From: a virus
Taxonomy: Duplodnaviria; Heunggongvirae; Uroviricota; Caudoviricetes
Reading direction: 5' to 3' (one strand)
DNA length: 4,837 nucleotides
IMG/VR virus record: IMGVR_UViG_2663762648_000008
Of the stretch, positions 1 through 4,837 are shown piece by piece (within the stretch, counting starts at the first letter, position 1; the number at the start of each line of letters is the position of its first letter). The position numbers were made by a program, and so were the translations under genes. The notes beneath the pieces were generated by a model. That model had not been told where the DNA came from and did no database searches. It saw only the letters and a program-made list of their open reading frames with translations.

Positions 1-241
1 TGGTCTGAAAACATCAATGTCGCGTAAAGGTAACTGTTACGACAACGCTCCGATGGAAAGCTTCTGGGGAACGCTGAAAAATGAGAGCCTGAGCCACTAT
101 CGTTTTAATAACCGGGATGAAGCCATCTCAGTAATACGGGAATACATTGAGATTTTCTACAATCGTCAGCGTCGTCACTCTCGTCTGGGGAATATCTCCC
201 CGGCAGCCTTCAGGGAAAAATATCATCAGATGGCTGCTTAA
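1..241 (+). CDS. IS3-family transposase (OrfB, DDE integrase-type), C-terminal fragment; 5' end lies outside the window
   Basis: Frame open from position 2 (GLKTS-MSRKGNCYDNAPMESFWGTLKNE...), stop TAA 239-241. The SRKGNCYDNAPMESF..LKNE block is the conserved C-terminal region of IS3-family OrfB transposases as I recall it. Confidence 0.8.
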   Translation, partial: GLKTSMSRKGNCYDNAPMESFWGTLKNESLSHYRFNNRDEAISVIREYIEIFYNRQRRHSRLGNISPAAFREKYHQMAA

Positions 242-279
242 AAAAAGAACAAATGGTAGTGTCCGCTATTGCCAGTACA
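1..279 (+). mobile_element. Right end of an IS3-family insertion sequence (IS150-like); terminus inferred near 273-279
   Basis: Transposase 3' end followed 38 bp later by CAGTACA (273-279), the reverse complement of the TGTACTG terminus I recall for IS150-type elements; IS3-family ends are 5'-TG...CA-3'. Exact boundary is not verified. Confidence 0.5.
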
Positions 280-483
280 CCTCATCCATCACCGAAAAAA
301 ATTGGCTTTTACACCATTGGCGATAAAAGCATTTACCTGTATGACCTACGCCGCATGGATGAAATCATGGAGGCTCTTGATAATCGTTCGTCGATGGATT
401 GGTGTGTTGCTGTTCATGATATGAATGCAGGGTTTGATGAAAAGATTTTGTTCCCCTCATCAGTTGAAAGCACTGCGGGTTAA
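253..483 (+). pseudogene. Hypothetical ORF, probably the 3' remnant of a gene interrupted by the IS insertion
   Basis: The ATG at 253 lies inside the presumed IS terminus and has no Shine-Dalgarno (A-rich run). The frame stays open from the IS junction to TAA 481-483 and encodes ...DLRRMDEIMEALDNRSSMDWCVAVHDMNAGFDEKILFPSSVESTAG, which looks protein-like. Confidence 0.3.
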
Positions 484-493
484 GGAGTAACAC

Positions 494-661
494 ATGACCA
501 CTATTACCAAAGAACGTATTGAATTGTTCATTAAAAACCCGCTTGAAAACGGGCTTACCCGTGGTGAACAAATGGAACTGGCACGGATTGCGCTGGCATC
601 GCTGGAAGCAGAGCCGGTTGTGTTCTGGTTTGAAAAATATCAAGAAGGGGCTACGGCATGA
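494..661 (+). CDS. Small hypothetical phage protein, 55 aa ([55 protein letters not shown])
   Basis: Below the length cutoff of the supplied ORF track; found by hand. AAGGAG at 482-487 sits 6 nt upstream of ATG 494. Stop TGA 659-661 overlaps the next ATG (ATGA at 658-661). Shares an N-terminus and an IAL-SL-AEP core with the next ORF. Confidence 0.55.
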
Positions 662-1002
662 CGACTTTTACCAGAGAGCAGTTAATAGCTCACGCAGAGG
701 AGACTATTGAAGCACAGAGACTGTGCATACCGGGCACAATCGACCATGACATCATCCGCACATATAAGATGGATATTGCTGTTCTGGAAATCGCACTGGT
801 ATCGCTGGCAGCAGAGCCAGCCGGTAAATTGCATGAATACAAACCAGTGGGATATCAGCGTCTGGTCGATGAGTTAACCATGCTGGTAAAGCAGTTAACC
901 TGGCAACTGAGGAAAGCGAAGCCAGACTGCAAATTACCGGATAAGGCGATGAGTTATCTGGAGCGGAACGGACTGATAAGCGTGGAGGATATTTTACGAT
1001 GA
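658..1002 (+). CDS. Hypothetical phage protein, 114 aa, paralogous in part to the preceding 55-aa ORF
   Basis: ORF track 658..1002; purine-rich SD (GAAGGGG 644-650) 7 nt upstream; start overlaps the upstream stop (ATGA). Protein-like composition; shares MTT-T-E N-terminus and [10 protein letters not shown] core with the 494-661 ORF. Confidence 0.65.
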
Positions 1003-1082
1003 CCTGGCCTGAAGCATTAACAACGGTAGGAATTGCGATGGCGGTGGCGCTGGTGGTGTATTCGATTTGCCGCTGGGGATAA
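999..1082 (+). CDS. Putative 27-aa hydrophobic peptide ([27 protein letters not shown]), possible single-pass membrane peptide
   Basis: ATG 999-1001 overlaps the stop TGA 1000-1002 of the upstream ORF (ATGA), suggesting translational coupling. It has an 18-residue hydrophobic core followed by CRW. Too short for the ORF track, and coding status is unproven. Confidence 0.3.
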
Positions 1083-1293
1083 AAACGGTTTGCGGGAAAA
1101 GGAGAGTTAAGTAGAATTGCAGCGGGTGCTTGAGGCTATCTGTCTCAGGCATGAACACCAAAAGGCAGATAGAGAAAAGCCCCAGTTAACATTACGCGTC
1201 CGGCAAGACGCTTAACATTAATCTGAGGCTCAATCTATGAACGGCAAATCTAGGTTAGCCTCTTACGTGCCGAAAGGCAAGGAGAAGCAGGCT

Positions 1294-1449
1294 ATGAAGC
1301 AGCAAAAGGCGATGTTAATCGCCCTGATCGTCATCTGTTTAACCGTCATAGTGACGGCACTGGTAACGAGGAAAGACCTCTGCGAGGTACGAATTCGAAC
1401 CGGCCAGACGGAGGTCGCTGTCTTCGTAGACTACGAATCCAGGAAGTAA
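1294..1449 (+). CDS. hokD: Hok-family type I toxin (HokD/RelF-like), 51 aa
   Basis: Translation MKQQKAMLIALIVICLTVIVTALVTRKDLCEVRIRTGQTEVAVFVDYESRK matches my recollection of E. coli HokD/RelF over the first ~44 residues, including the TM helix and the conserved Cys; the C-terminus differs (VDYESRK vs TAYEPEE). AAGGAG 1279-1284 lies 9 nt upstream of ATG 1294. The track's longer ORF 1237..1449 is the same frame with a 19-codon in-frame extension. Confidence 0.85.
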   Translation: MKQQKAMLIALIVICLTVIVTALVTRKDLCEVRIRTGQTEVAVFVDYESRK

Positions 1450-1457
1450 GAGTGACC

Positions 1458-1485
1458 GGGCGGGGAGCTGATCCCATCCCCGCCC
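1458..1485 (+). other. Perfect 8-bp stem / 12-nt loop RNA hairpin in the hok 3' UTR, not a terminator
   Basis: GGGCGGGG (1458-1465) pairs with CCCCGCCC (1478-1485) and no U-run follows. The homologous position in copy B (2375-2396) forms a different but still pairing stem (GGCGGGGG / CCCTCGCC with one G-U), so the structure is kept despite sequence change. Confidence 0.45.
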
Positions 1486-1525
1486 ACCTCTGATGTGTCA
1501 GGCATCCTCAACGCACCCGCACTTA

Positions 1526-1580
1526 ACCCGCCCATCGCTGTGATCTCTCAGCGTTTCGGCGGGTTTTTTGTTGTTTATTT
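1526..1580 (+). terminator. Rho-independent terminator downstream of hok (extended hairpin with inner stem-loop)
   Basis: ACCCGCC (1526-1532) pairs with GGCGGGT (1558-1564), followed by TTTTTTGTTGTTTATTT. The 25-nt loop contains an inner 5-bp hairpin (CGCTG...CAGCG). Copy B has the same outer stem with a simple TTCG loop. Confidence 0.55.
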
Positions 1581-1589
1581 CCGGTGAAT

Positions 1590-1617
1590 TTGATTCGCGC
1601 ACCTTCGCAGATAGAAT
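1590..1617 (+). promoter_or_regulatory. Putative sigma70 promoter for the downstream rem-position gene
   Basis: -35 TTGATT (1590-1595), 16-bp spacer, -10 TAGAAT (1612-1617). Located just after the terminator and ~80 nt upstream of ATG 1699. Motif match by eye only. Confidence 0.4.
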
Positions 1618-1651
1618 CGACTCACTTAAGTAGCGCGCAGGGAGAAGAGGG

Positions 1652-1696
1652 ATGGACCCCGAACAGGGGAGAGCTATTTATCTGGAAGGATTCTGA
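1652..1696 (+). CDS. Putative 14-codon upstream/leader ORF (MDPEQGRAIYLEGF) in the 5' UTR of the 1699 gene
   Basis: GGAG 1641-1644 is 7 nt upstream of ATG 1652. Stop TGA 1694-1696 ends 2 nt before the main ATG 1699, and the ORF covers the main gene's SD (GGAAGGA 1684-1690). It is conserved in copy B (2541-2588). Confidence 0.3.
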   Translation: MDPEQGRAIYLEGF

Positions 1697-1698
1697 AG

Positions 1699-1986
1699 AT
1701 GAAAATCGAAGAATTGCGTGAAATTTTTAGTGAAAATGGCCTCTATGCTGTGCGCGTTGAGAATGGAGCGATTGTCAGCCATTGCCGCATTAGATGTTTG
1801 CAATCTCAACAAAGGAAGAGCGGTGCTGTGTTATTTTATTTTTGTAATGGACTTCTGACGGACGGTTTTATTTTGCGTGAGGACGAATTTGTCACATCAT
1901 TACGGGTTTTGAAAGAGATTGGTTTTAAGGCTGGTTTTCTGCTTTTGCTGAAGAATAAACTCATCTACAATCTTGAGCAGGATTGA
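1699..1986 (+). CDS. Hypothetical protein, 95 aa, in the position between hok and the DUF968 gene (rem-like position in Qin-type prophages)
   Basis: ORF track 1699..1986; SD AGGA 1687-1690 with 8-nt spacer. The first 29 codons are near-identical to the ORF at 2588; the remainder is unique and AT-rich. Confidence 0.5.
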   Translation: MKIEELREIFSENGLYAVRVENGAIVSHCRIRCLQSQQRKSGAVLFYFCNGLLTDGFILREDEFVTSLRVLKEIGFKAGFLLLLKNKLIYNLEQD

Positions 1987-2024
1987 ACTCCTGCTGTGTA
2001 ACACCGTGCCACCGGAGAAAGCCG

Positions 2025-2360
2025 ATGGCACATATACAACTGGTCAAACAAACCTCTTCCGGATTACTTCTCCCGGCGACGCCGGAGAGTTGCGATTTTC
2101 TGCATCAAATCAAAATAGGTGAGTGGATACACGCAGACTTTAAGCGTGTGTGTAACTACGCATTCCACAAGCGTTTTTTCAAACTCCTGCAACTGGGTTT
2201 CGATTACTGGACTCCGGTCGGTGGGGCGATCACGCCTCGCGAACGAAGTCATCTGTTTAACCGTCATAGTGACGGCACTGGTAACGAGGAAAGACCTCTG
2301 CGAGGTACGAATTCGAACCGGCCAGACGGAGGTCGCTGTCTTCACAGCTTACGAACCTGA
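2025..2360 (+). pseudogene. Truncated/chimeric ORF: ~74 well-formed N-terminal codons (MAHIQLVKQTSSGLLLPATPESCDFLHQIKIGEWIHADFKRVCNYAFHKRFFKLLQLGFDYWTPVGG...) running into the hok remnant out of frame
   Basis: Strong SD (GGAG 2014-2017) 7 nt upstream of ATG 2025. The protein-like sequence continues to ~2248, where repeat copy B begins; beyond that the frame reads hok-homologous DNA in a non-hok frame (low-complexity tail) until the stop at 2358-2360. Confidence 0.4.
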
Positions 2361-2367
2361 GGAGTAA
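2248..2367 (+). pseudogene. Hok toxin 3' remnant (encodes the C-terminal ~39 aa, ...VICLTVIVTALVTRKDLCEVRIRTGQTEVAVFTAYEPEE), lacking start codon and N-terminus
   Basis: Identical over 97 nt to hok copy A, with a C-terminus as I recall for K-12 HokD (TAYEPEE) and stop TAA 2365-2367. The upstream in-frame sequence is unrelated to hok and no hok start or SD is present. Confidence 0.8.
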
Positions 2368-2436
2368 GAGACCTGGCGGGGGAGAAATCCCTCGCCACCT
2401 CTGATGGGGCAGGCATCCTCAATGCACCCACACTTA

Positions 2437-2465
2437 ACCCGCTTCGGCGGGTTTTTGTTTTTATT
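2437..2465 (+). terminator. Rho-independent terminator (copy B)
   Basis: ACCCGC (2437-2442), loop TTCG, GCGGGT (2447-2452), then TTTTGTTTTTATTTT. Confidence 0.6.
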
Positions 2466-2475
2466 TTCAACGCGT

Positions 2476-2505
2476 TTGAAGTTTTAGATGGTGCCGGAAT
2501 AGAAT
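2476..2505 (+). promoter_or_regulatory. Putative sigma70 promoter (copy B)
   Basis: -35 TTGAAG (2476-2481), 18-bp spacer, -10 TAGAAT (2500-2505). The -10 is conserved with copy A while the -35 region has diverged. Confidence 0.4.
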
Positions 2506-2540
2506 CAAAAATACTTAAGTAGCGCGCAGGGAGAAGAGGG

Positions 2541-2588
2541 ATGGACCCCGAACAGGGGAGTGCTATTTATCTGGAAGGATTCTGTTGA
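2541..2588 (+). CDS. Putative 15-codon upstream/leader ORF (MDPEQGSAIYLEGFC), copy B
   Basis: Same SD and ATG context as copy A. Stop TGA 2586-2588 overlaps the main ATG 2588-2590 (TGATG). Confidence 0.3.
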   Translation: MDPEQGSAIYLEGFC

Positions 2589-2869
2589 TGAAAATCGAAG
2601 AATTACGTGAAATTTTTAGTGAAGATGGCCTCTATACTGTGCGCGTTGAGAATGGCGCTATTGTCAGCCACTGCCTTCCAGACTACACAATTCTGATAAT
2701 TCAGCCGTCTTTGCCAGCAGGCACGGGCGGCGCTCTCACGCATTTAAATCTGATTGGTACCAGCATCCCCCATGCACTGAAGAACAGGCCGAATGGCTCA
2801 TTCAGTGTTACCGCAGGCGCGGATGCGAGGTTAAAAAAGCCCTTAGCCTCGACTACCGTCACTGGATAA
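2588..2869 (+). CDS. Hypothetical protein, 93 aa, paralogous over its first 29 residues to the 1699 ORF; C-terminal part looks low-complexity and may not be genuine
   Basis: The track ORF 2585..2869 starts at TTG; ATG 2588 with SD AGGA 2576-2579 is the more likely start. N-terminus MKIEELREIFSEDGLYTVRVENGAIVSHC is shared with copy A, but the tail (…PSLPAGTGGALTHLNLIGTSIPHALKNRPNGSFSVTAGADARL...) is G/T/S/A/P-rich. Confidence 0.45.
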   Translation: MKIEELREIFSEDGLYTVRVENGAIVSHCLPDYTILIIQPSLPAGTGGALTHLNLIGTSIPHALKNRPNGSFSVTAGADARLKKPLASTTVTG

Positions 2870-2944
2870 TCTCCGTCAGGCTCCCTTACTCCGAACGGCC
2901 AACGCGTCCGTCCCGCACATTCCAGCAACGGATCTGGAGGTAAT

Positions 2945-4003
2945 GTGCGGGTATTACTTCGACCTGTTCTGGTACCGGAACTCGGTCTGGTTATCGTTAA
3001 GCCAGGCCGTGAATCAATGTCAGCATTCCATAACGGCAGAATACTGGTGGAGCCGGAACCAAAAAGCATGCGTAATCTGCCGTCCGGGGTCGTTCCTGCC
3101 GCTCGCCAGCCGCTGGTGGAAGACAAAACATTGCTGCCGTTTTTCAGTAACGCACGGGTGATTCGTGCTGCTGGTGGTGCTGGTGCATTGTCTGACTGGC
3201 TGTTGCGCCATATTAAATCCTGCCAGTGGCCACACGGCGATTATCATCACAGCGAAACCGTCATTCACCGTTATGGTACCGGCGCAATGGTGTTGTGCTG
3301 GCACTGCGACAACCAGCTGCGTGACCAGACATCCGAATCACTCGAGCAACTTGCTCATCAAAACCTGTCAGCATGGATGATTGACGTCATCGGTCACGCA
3401 ATAAGCGGTACGCAGGAGCGTGAATTATCTCTGGCTGAATTATCCTGGTGGGCGGTCCGCAATCAGGTGGCGGACGCGCTACCGGAAGCGGTATTACGTC
3501 GTTCGCTGGGGTTGCGTGCGGAAAAAATTCGCTCTGTGTACAGTGAAAGCGACATCATACCGGGAGAGCAGACAGCCACCAGCATACTGAAGCAGCGCAC
3601 AAAAAATATTGCGTTACTGCCTCACGTCCACCAGCAACAGAACCCACCACAGGAAAAGACGGTGGTCAGCATTGCCGTTGATCCGGAGTCACCGGCTCAG
3701 TATCTCCAGCGCCAGAAACCACAACGGGAAGAGATGCCTGTATACACGCGTTGGGTAAAAACGCAGAAATGCATGACGTGCGGTAATCAGGCAGATGATC
3801 CGCATCACATCATTGGTCATGGACTGGGAGGGATGGGAACAAAGGCTGATGATTTGTTTGTTATTCCGTTATGCCGTAAATGCCGTAACGAACTACATGC
3901 CGGAGTAAAAGATTTTGAAGAGAAACACGGCAGTCAGCTGTTGTTGCTGATTCGTTTTTTAATGCACGCGAGAAATTCGGGTGTTCTGAAGTGGAAAGCA
4001 TAA
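2945..4003 (+). CDS. DUF968/YdfU-like prophage protein, 352 aa, with a C-terminal HNH-like Cys/His motif
   Basis: Long ORF with protein-like composition; GGAGG 2936-2940 upstream of GTG 2945 (short 4-nt spacer, so the start is uncertain). C-terminal region has C-x2-C ... HH ... C-x2-C ... H (CMTCGNQADDPHHIIGHGLGG...CRKCRNELH). The stop TAA 4001-4003 is immediately followed by the rusA ATG. Confidence 0.8.
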   Translation: MRVLLRPVLVPELGLVIVKPGRESMSAFHNGRILVEPEPKSMRNLPSGVVPAARQPLVEDKTLLPFFSNARVIRAAGGAGALSDWLLRHIKSCQWPHGDYHHSETVIHRYGTGAMVLCWHCDNQLRDQTSESLEQLAHQNLSAWMIDVIGHAISGTQERELSLAELSWWAVRNQVADALPEAVLRRSLGLRAEKIRSVYSESDIIPGEQTATSILKQRTKNIALLPHVHQQQNPPQEKTVVSIAVDPESPAQYLQRQKPQREEMPVYTRWVKTQKCMTCGNQADDPHHIIGHGLGGMGTKADDLFVIPLCRKCRNELHAGVKDFEEKHGSQLLLLIRFLMHARNSGVLKWKA

Positions 4004-4384
4004 ATGACCGAGCGCATAGAATTTGTTTTACCTTACCCGCCGACGGTGAACACTTACTGGCGTCGTCGTGGCAGCACATATTTTGTATCAAAAGCCGGGG
4101 AGCGTTATCGCCGGGCAGTGGCGCTTATTGTTCGCCAGCAGCGGCTGAAATTAAGCCTGTCCGGAAGGTTGGCAATAAAAATTATTGCAGAACCACCGGA
4201 TAAGCGCCGCCGTGACCTGGACAATATTCTGAAAGCGCCGCTGGATGCGCTGACGCATGCGGGGTTGCTAATGGACGATGAGCAGTTTGATGAAATCAAT
4301 ATCGTTCGTGGTCAGCCAGTATCTGGTGGACGTCTGGGGGTGAAGATTTATCCCATAATGCTTGAAGGGCAGGTCAAAAAATGA
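4004..4384 (+). CDS. rusA: RusA-family crossover junction endodeoxyribonuclease (Holliday junction resolvase), 126 aa
   Basis: The translation contains the RusA signature PDKRRRDLDN followed by the acidic cluster MDDEQFDE, matching the catalytic Asp positions I recall for E. coli RusA (D70, D72, D91). It sits in the typical position just upstream of Q. Confidence 0.9.
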   Translation: MTERIEFVLPYPPTVNTYWRRRGSTYFVSKAGERYRRAVALIVRQQRLKLSLSGRLAIKIIAEPPDKRRRDLDNILKAPLDALTHAGLLMDDEQFDEINIVRGQPVSGGRLGVKIYPIMLEGQVKK

Positions 4385-4837
4385 AACTGGAAGATTTACC
4401 GAAATACTACTCCCCAAAATCCCCCGGCCTGACTGATGCATCGGCCTCAACGTCGAAAGATGCGCTGAGTATCACTGATGTGATGGCCGCGCAGGGCATG
4501 ACACAGAATCGGGCTGAGATGGGGGTTTCTGCGTTCCTTGGGAAAATGGGCATTAGTATGAATGACAGAGAGCGGGCAACAGAATTGCTGACAGAATATG
4601 CACTCAGTCGGTGTGATCGCGTGGCGGCGTTAAGAAAACTCCCGGCAGAAATAAAACCGGCAGTGATGCGTATTATGGCTTCGTATGCGTTTGAAGATTA
4701 TGCCCGTAGCGCGGCGAGCAAAAAACAGTGCCCCTGCTGTCACGGAAAAAAATTTATTGAAAGCGAGGTTTTTACAAACAAGATCCAGTATCCGGATGGT
4801 AAGCCGCCGGTATGGGCAAAGTGTACGAAAGGTGTGT
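4381..4837 (+). CDS. Antitermination protein Q family (lambdoid late-gene regulator), N-terminal 152 codons; 3' end outside the window
   Basis: ATG 4381 overlaps the rusA stop (ATGA). The frame is open to the window end and contains a C-x-CC-H-G-K zinc-finger-like cluster (KKQCPCCHGKKF...C) typical of Q-type antiterminators. Gene order DUF968 - rusA - Q is the canonical lambdoid nin-to-Q layout. Confidence 0.8.
   Translation, partial: MKLEDLPKYYSPKSPGLTDASASTSKDALSITDVMAAQGMTQNRAEMGVSAFLGKMGISMNDRERATELLTEYALSRCDRVAALRKLPAEIKPAVMRIMASYAFEDYARSAASKKQCPCCHGKKFIESEVFTNKIQYPDGKPPVWAKCTKGV

Follow-up and report, generated by a model that had tools for sequence, protein, structure and literature searches.

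The DNA analysed here, a 4,837-nt stretch taken at its full length (the window; IMG/VR record IMGVR_UViG_2663762648_000008, Caudoviricetes), is the late-regulatory region of a lambdoid prophage according to its open reading frames (ORFs), Pfam and Rfam matches and gene calls, and presents in series two copies (A and B) of a cassette composed of the toxin gene hok, its terminator, and the promoter, leader and 5′ part of the antirepressor gene rem. Two types of locus contribute to it: the X-type, with the order IS600, small ORFs, sok/mok/hok, terminator, P_rem, leader, rem' (29 codons), orfX, DUF968, RusA and Q, and the Y-type, with the order QueH, sok/mok/hok, rem (95 aa), DUF1367, YbcO and DUF1133. 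The adjacency of the two cassettes is most likely a scaffolding artefact (probability about 0.7), a figure which also covers a variant with a real joint between the X-type left part and the Y-type tail and a false tandem layout. The base at the junction is N in the public record, each half of the window matches a separate single-copy locus, and the junction is absent elsewhere; from this we infer that the join is false rather than merely unsequenced, and how a scaffolder would have made it.

The junction at position 2247

The window is the whole of the draft contig CXFX01000244.1 (locus L127; assembly GCA_001261315.1), and the two differ at base 2247 alone, where the record gives N and the window gives A. 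This base is the exact boundary between the end of the copy A unit and the start of copy B, where Y-type tail and X-type tail are joined, and because of the N the adjacency of the copies rests on a scaffold join and not on read sequence. A 161-nt query across the junction was not matched over 80% or more of its length in any of 5,426 complete E. coli genomes, the junction was not found in GTDB species representatives, IMG/VR or JGI metagenomes, and exact look-ups of the three possible fused ORFs across it returned none on record in 153 billion gene positions. The tandem duplication put forward in the preliminary description, with the modules truly adjacent, finds no support, given the N and the absence of the junction from these collections: no continuous sequence runs across the joint and no independent assembly contains it. 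What is found is a gap character with repeated sequence after it, and two branches each of which is a single-copy locus in finished genomes. That the second copy could be an assembly artefact had been named beforehand as the outcome that would overturn the duplication, and it is now the most likely one.

The geometry of the join points the same way. The inner contig ends abut exactly, with no overlap into the 96-nt repeat that opens copy B and no microhomology between the abutting ends at 2247/2248. Measured from each inner end, the closest site known to be polymorphic or divergent is 96 nt away (2344-2248; 2247-2151), as expected for a de Bruijn fork with k=97, and this is a hint that such a fork lies behind the two ends.

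Among 276 loci carrying the 96-nt hok block, two hok copies were found in four (the window, L251, L291 and L307), and in all four a single N stands between the copies. An N within 2.5 kb, the distance scored for single-copy loci, was present in two of the 272 single-copy loci, against four of four for the two-copy loci (Fisher p=6e-8). The N-junctions of L291 (DUF968'/QueH') and L251 occur in no complete E. coli genome, and each of their sides separately matches many.

Single-N joins are common in the IMG/VR contigs L203, L230, L251, L291, L307 and L124, and in several of them the stretch that follows the N exactly repeats 114 to at least 200 nt from an earlier part of the contig. At six of 20 single-N joins in these contigs, the N precedes 96 to at least 200 nt that exactly duplicate earlier scaffold sequence; besides the window, this pattern was seen at five single-N joins, located in L203, L230, L251 and L307. 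Such a pattern is expected if a shared segment has two alternative continuations and these are placed in series. The authors of a widely used Velvet/SSPACE/GapFiller pipeline, which may or may not be the one behind GCA_001261315.1, have described that its greedy tools can join falsely, with N remaining at the joins (Page et al. 2016, PMC5320598), and mis-assembly is known to build false duplications out of divergent copies (Kelley & Salzberg 2010, PMC2864568). The artefacts of those reports resemble the present case in that two diverged versions adjoin across a gap, with a repeat at the gap edge and with absence from finished genomes, and differ in that they concern diploid haplotypes or joins in general, whereas here paralogous prophage cassettes of a haploid genome are involved.

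In the course of events that would account for the window, a scaffolded short-read contig has laid in series two alleles of the sok/mok/hok–rem cassette that normally reside in different prophage remnants. The X-type cassette would be the true context of positions 1-1425 together with 2344-4837, and the 821-nt Y-type tail (1426-2246) would be the other sequence that can follow a hok segment shared without difference by the two loci. In placing both, the assembler or scaffolder would have repeated the 96 nt preceding the fork, leaving a single N where the continuations abut. The patchy identity between the copies is real and ordinary, an allelic divergence between paralogous cassettes, with the Hok core, the fbi element, the terminator stem, the -10 box, the rem leader and the Rem N-terminus conserved, and the remaining cassette sequence free to vary or exchanged by recombination among lambdoid prophages. 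If the junction is an artefact, reads of DUF1367' are expected to run on as AACTGGTGTCC past position 2247.

Divergence and origin of the two copies

Pairwise alignment confirmed that the repeat is present in the window where it had been placed. The exact block inside hok, reported as 97 nt, is indeed exact and is 96 nt long (1330-1425 and 2248-2343, 96/96; block R). The second block, covering the 5′ untranslated region (UTR) and the first 29 codons of rem and described as about 160 nt of exact identity, is not exact: positions 1624-1786 and 2513-2675 are 94% identical (153/163), their longest exact run is 48 nt, and the identities are 72/75 in the rem 5′ UTR and 81/87 in rem codons 1-29. The divergence seen earlier in the hok C-terminus, the 3′ hairpin, the terminator loop and the -35 region agrees with the alignment of each block, with identities of 15/24 in the hok C-terminal codons, 20/36 with 7 gaps in the 3′ hairpin and 13/39 in the -35 box and spacer, and a 23-nt insertion in the terminator loop of copy A relative to copy B. 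The fbi region is identical at 42/46 positions and the terminator 3′ arm with its T tract at 15/17. In the diverged segments the copies are separated by indels and by up to about 65-95% of positions changed.

Each copy has its own source. By blastn, window 1396-2247 matches the Y loci L310-L313 and L315, and likewise L094, at 100% identity; carriers of the Y locus include Shigella sonnei 53G (HE616528.1), CP032523.1, CP102341.1 and other finished genomes, and in these loci DUF1367 reads on beyond the equivalent of window 2247. On the X side, window 178-1425 is 100% identical to single-module contigs, e.g. L104, and for window 2248-4837 the identity to the single-module contigs L104, L025 and L126 is 99.8%. 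When 1426-2343 is taken out, the remaining 3,919 nt of the window align end to end and gap-free, at 99.8% identity, with the chromosome-scale loci L320-L325, e.g. LR213449.1 (4.84 Mb). The origin from two related prophage modules, one of the two options of the preliminary description, is thereby upheld, the tail of copy A being Y-type (100%) and everything from copy B onward X-type (99.8%). A single-module variant, anticipated there as the product of deletion between the direct repeats, does exist; it is the normal form of chromosome-scale assemblies and no deletion derivative.

As the copies correspond, at 99.8-100% identity, to two different alleles that are found elsewhere in single copy, their divergence predates any juxtaposition. 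As judged from these comparisons, the mosaic identity is pre-existing divergence of two cassette alleles that normally lie in two different prophage remnants. The same mosaic separates single-copy X and Y alleles of other genomes, which makes patchy gene conversion, the other option offered, unnecessary; the single-copy allele L002, for example, is 80.9% identical to copy B with 8 gaps, a mosaic like that between the copies of the window.

Alternative explanations of the arrangement

Several points weigh against a plain false join. A scaffolder normally needs several read pairs, and pairs linking DUF1367' to the X-type tail are not reconstructable if the two loci are far apart. The outer contig ends (the 284 nt of IS600 and position 4837) are devoid of the k=97 signature. 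The look-up lists of the X and the Y locus share no finished genome, the two loci being seen only in sister assemblies. Finally, copy A is chimeric: it carries X-type bases at 1383 (C) and 1395 (T), sites that are T and C in all sampled Y alleles, and continues as Y-type sequence from 1426, 30 nt later, and this chimeric X/Y stretch of hok was in no other genome searched.

Because the hok allele of copy A is chimeric and unique to this contig, some real exchange between X and Y, or an unsampled Y allele, has to be assumed in the isolate. Such exchange has precedents, as the natural Y alleles L334, L335 and L338 hold X-like sok/mok segments, showing that the X and Y hok loci exchange sequence, and in some strains the stretch over which X and Y alleles are exactly identical reaches 238 nt (1145-1382). 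Three situations are conceivable in the isolate: a converted Y allele, by which a perfect fork would arise and a false join would be favoured; a larger X/Y rearrangement; or a true insertion with its junction inside the gap.

The second of these, a large rearrangement, duplication or gene conversion between the X and Y hok segments, would give a real joint of X-type left part and Y-type tail beside a normal X locus, the tandem layout again being an artefact, and is possible, if on the unlikely side. It accounts both for the unique chimeric hok allele and for the N-join with the repeated 96-nt prefix, and the 238 nt of exact identity would be enough for RecA recombination; against it, it requires one event more than a simple false join. 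A reciprocal X/Y crossover is excluded, for the R block of copy B carries X-type and not Y-type single-nucleotide polymorphisms (SNPs).

Improbable is a real insertion of tandem-like appearance, by which the hok gene of an X-type prophage would have received, through recombination, a fragment of Y type (hok 3′ end–rem–DUF1367'). On the left, crossover would be homologous, within hok at 1396-1425, and on the right the join would be illegitimate, between DUF1367 nt ~222 and hok nt 37 or inside the gap. After such an event hok and rem would both be intact, a dead hok remnant and a truncated rem would lie downstream of them, and the repeats could delete the 918-bp unit. In its favour, the contig is unbroken from the X-type left flank through 1383C and 1395T into the Y-type tail, a chimera seen only here; the X-type SNPs are the same in the two R blocks, which fits an origin of both from the X locus; read pairs normally back scaffold joins (PMC5320598); and the Y alleles with X-like sok/mok attest X/Y exchange. 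It is opposed by the N at the junction, by the exact abutment of contig ends that neither overlap into the 96-nt repeat nor share microhomology, and by the fact that an assembler or gap-filler should have closed a unique junction from crossing reads. In addition, none of the four large collections contains the junction, and all comparable two-hok scaffolds have an N as well, the two that were tested being unsupported by finished genomes. The corresponding genomic arrangement, a Y-type patch with intact rem and its own promoter set into the hok of an X-type prophage that otherwise has a 29-codon rem stump, is rather doubtful. If it were true, the direct repeats of 96 nt and 163 nt would make the rem-plus state reversible by RecA-mediated deletion, and the segment would be a switch for gain and loss of an antirepressor.

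The breakpoint in hok has one counterpart. Locus L004 (2440-2640; E. coli 95NR1, NZ_CP021339.1; also 95JB1 and O111:H8 8B) holds a hok 3′ remnant, sequenced in finished genomes, which begins after …GAAC with GTCATCTG, at approximately the same hok base as window 2248. The remnant adjoins part of a phage integrase gene, next to potC, and in the annotation it gives a Hok/Gef protein of 49 aa whose N-terminus is new. That the two starts coincide may be due to chance, to a graph branch point or to a shared weak point. A recombination hot spot at hok nt 37 was considered and rejected, as an IMG/VR scan for hok blocks with a non-native base two positions upstream yielded one contig, a plain SNP variant.

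A recent simple tandem duplication followed by point-mutational decay or patchy gene conversion, for which only the 96-nt exact block and the 94% block speak, has next to no probability, being already refuted by the identities of the single blocks and because the copies match two separate alleles; as regards the recent simple duplication, this agrees with the preliminary description.

Gene content, the hok and rem loci, and lambdoid mosaicism

All features of the window are on the plus strand. The left contig end is the 3′ end of an IS600-family (IS3-like) element (1-284), with matches at 100% annotated as 'IS3-like element IS600 family transposase' and with the C-terminus of transposase OrfB at 17-241 (Pfam rve_2/rve_3). 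The X-type left flank follows (285-1100), with four small prophage ORFs (253-483, 494-661, 658-1002 and 999-1082), at 100% identity to the single-module contig L104 and to L320-L325. In the Shigella-type Y loci (L094 1-191; L311, L312 and L315 ~5634), DUF1367 is interrupted by the same IS600 end that opens the window, 84 nt downstream of the equivalent of window 2247 and in opposite orientation.

The 5′ leader of the hok mRNA, including the Sok-complementary region, extends over 1124-1299, with the tac element at 1124-1135, and is matched at full length by the Rfam family RF01794 'sok' (112.4 bits, gathering threshold 59, E=7e-26). The intact mok of copy A (1237-1449, 70 aa; ORF list and source-record gene calls) overlaps hok (1294-1449, 51 aa), the product of which matches Pfam HOK_GEF (PF01848) over profile positions 1-42 of 42 (E=1.1e-22), so that the claim of an intact hok in copy A stands. 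The first occurrence of block R (1330-1425) corresponds to hok codons 13-44. In the Y-type tail, from the hok C-terminus to DUF1367' (1426-2246), are then found the 3′ UTR hairpin (1458-1485, by folding), fbi (about 1505-1520) and the terminator (1525-1565, by folding), with a nested hairpin formed by the 23-nt insert. The rem promoter (1590-1617, promoter scan), leader (1624-1698) and the 95-aa rem (1699-1986) follow, and the tail ends in the first 74 codons of DUF1367 (2025-2246; Pfam DUF1367 positions 1-74 of 198).

Copy B starts immediately after the N with a hok 3′ remnant of codons 13-51 (2248-2367), the first 96 nt of which (2248-2343) are the second occurrence of block R, and which is out of frame with DUF1367'. 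Its X-type 3′ UTR (2368-2460) holds a hairpin (2374-2397), fbi (about 2414-2430) and an intrinsic terminator (2436-2453), by folding and terminator scan. Next come the rem promoter (2476-2505, promoter scan), the conserved leader (2513-2587; conservation across 36 distinct alleles), the first 29 codons only of rem (2588-2675), and orfX (2677-2943), the gene upstream of DUF968, which is devoid of its start codon and first 4 codons (blastn and translations). According to Pfam and gene calls, a DUF968/HNH-like gene (2945-4003), RusA (4004-4384) and the 5′ part of antiterminator Q (4381-4837), which runs off the contig, complete the window. Where the window, L126 and the chromosome-scale X loci differ, they do so in clusters, with four SNPs in 66 nt of DUF968 (3719-3784) and three in 18 nt of RusA/Q (4351-4368), which suggests gene conversion between paralogous prophage genes or mixing of paralogs by the assembler in the consensus.

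As a toxin–antitoxin (TA) locus, copy A is complete in its recognisable parts: a Hok/Gef ORF of ~50 aa with a transmembrane N-terminus, a leader with Sok target, mok, fbi and a terminator. Copy B is without hok start codon, mok, Sok target and promoter, gives no Rfam sok match, and has as its only in-frame start a GTG at 2119 without Shine-Dalgarno sequence. Both terminators and both 3′ hairpins still fold, and fbi is kept in both 3′ UTRs. The tac–fbi duplex of copy A is predicted at -26.4 kcal/mol, versus -16.7±3.4 for shuffled sequences and reached by 3 of 500 of them, and that of the 5′ tac with the X-type fbi of copy B at -34.0 kcal/mol. There was no signal of tac/fbi co-variation between the X-type 5′ and the Y-type 3′ UTR (x5–a3 -26.4 kcal/mol, y5–a3 -25.4 kcal/mol). 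The 23-nt loop insertion of the Y-type terminator (1532-1554) forms a nested hairpin of -22.8 kcal/mol (z=-6.1), whereas the X-type loop is a plain 4 nt. Going by these predicted elements, the X-type 5′ part with either 3′ UTR would hold everything a hok/sok locus needs, and copy B alone would be unable to make toxin or to work as a TA locus.

Matches of hok are annotated as hokD, mokW/hokW/sokW or gef in phages and genomes. With hok/sok of plasmid R1 and its chromosomal and prophage relatives hokD/relF (Qin) and hokW (933W), copy A shares the leader with Sok target, the mok overlap, the 51-aa Hok, fbi and the terminator, and copy B differs from all in consisting of codons 13-51 and the 3′ UTR only. 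The hokD of K-12 reportedly keeps the whole hok ORF and is without sok and mok, a truncation unlike that of copy B. In the Salmonella prophage Gifsy-1, the gene order isrK–anrP–antQ places a small structured RNA before an antirepressor gene and, further on, Q. The layout of isrK–orf45–anrP is broadly like that of the window, with a structured small RNA upstream of an antirepressor gene and Q downstream. Membership of the hok 3′ UTR of copy B (2376-2457), shortly before the rem promoter, in the isrK family was rejected, with 25.8 bits against a gathering threshold of 50 and only two hairpins shared.

The gene 3′ of hok is rem, as phage-record matches are so annotated and the family PF27490 Rem is on record for both rem products; a local Pfam copy returned no match. 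Rem is the antirepressor of the Qin prophage and an antagonist of DicA, and ectopic K-12 Rem derepresses dicBp 165-fold (PMC10448788). Relative to Qin Rem, the 95-aa form of copy A has an altered C-terminal tail, and copy B retains only 29 codons, fused out of frame to orfX. The product of copy A falls within the 82-95 aa of a full-length Rem domain and is found identically in 4,517 gene-collection blocks; the 93-aa product of copy B (2588-2869) is short of a full-length Rem, being rem over codons 1-29 and out-of-frame orfX for the rest. Relative to L003, the X-type locus has a 250-bp deletion without microhomology (L003 3658-3907), which takes away rem from codon 30 to codon 86, the intergenic sequence and four codons at the start of orfX, and because of this deletion, which also removes the orfX start, X-type rem is a 29-codon stump. 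The 93-aa rem'–orfX fusion recurs in L025, L104, L126 and chromosome-scale assemblies, and in 965 gene-collection blocks; the rem-stump form of the X-type locus is widespread.

Both rem promoters are sigma-70-like by promoter scan (TTGATT-16-TAGAAT in copy A, TTGAAG-18-TAGAAT in copy B). The -10 box, the 75-nt leader and the first ~23-29 codons (window 1612-1786 and 2500-2675) are nearly invariant across 36 distinct alleles of IMG/VR loci, and downstream of them at least three unrelated continuations occur: an 82-86 aa Rem, the 95-aa form, and a 57-aa form ending in …FIEYLERLGFKVVRE, which shares with rem only about the first 23 codons. No stable fold was predicted for the rem leader RNA (z +0.5 to +0.9). 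An upstream ORF in the leader, MDPEQGRAIYLEGF (1652-1696 and 2541-2588), with its stop 2 nt ahead of the rem ATG in copy A and overlapping the rem start (TGATG) in copy B, was dismissed as a conserved element, as the K-12-type allele retains 3 codons of it and other alleles carry a frameshift in it.

The segment from hok to Q is present in more than 120 IMG/VR contigs, in the orders hok–orfX–DUF968, hok–rem–orfX–DUF968, hok–rem–DUF1367 and hok–DUF1367, and in the variant of L001. In the latter (2756-4569; E. coli TUM10008), the hok terminator is separated from the rem promoter by a 1.8-kb insert, which is flanked by a duplicated 21-nt terminator sequence and encodes a 216-aa protein and a helix-turn-helix/Peptidase_M78-like protein; it looks like a moron-type insertion. 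The window resembles the mosaicism of the lambdoid 'nin' region in having blocks of near-identity beside unrelated sequence, and is unlike it in that its new joint, DUF1367'/'hok, is not sequence-verified.

The case is a cautionary one, in which an apparent mosaic tandem duplication dissolves when compared with the source record and with finished genomes. Surveys of TA copy number or of prophage mosaic joints that rely on scaffolded short-read assemblies could count false duplications, and apparent duplications in uncultivated viral genomes with single-N joins are untrustworthy unless checked. Enrichment of hok in prophages has been described before (bioRxiv 10.1101/2025.08.07.668861), as have the Rem antirepressor and lambdoid mosaicism, and nothing in the window is new in kind; hok/sok–rem is a highly recombining lambdoid module.

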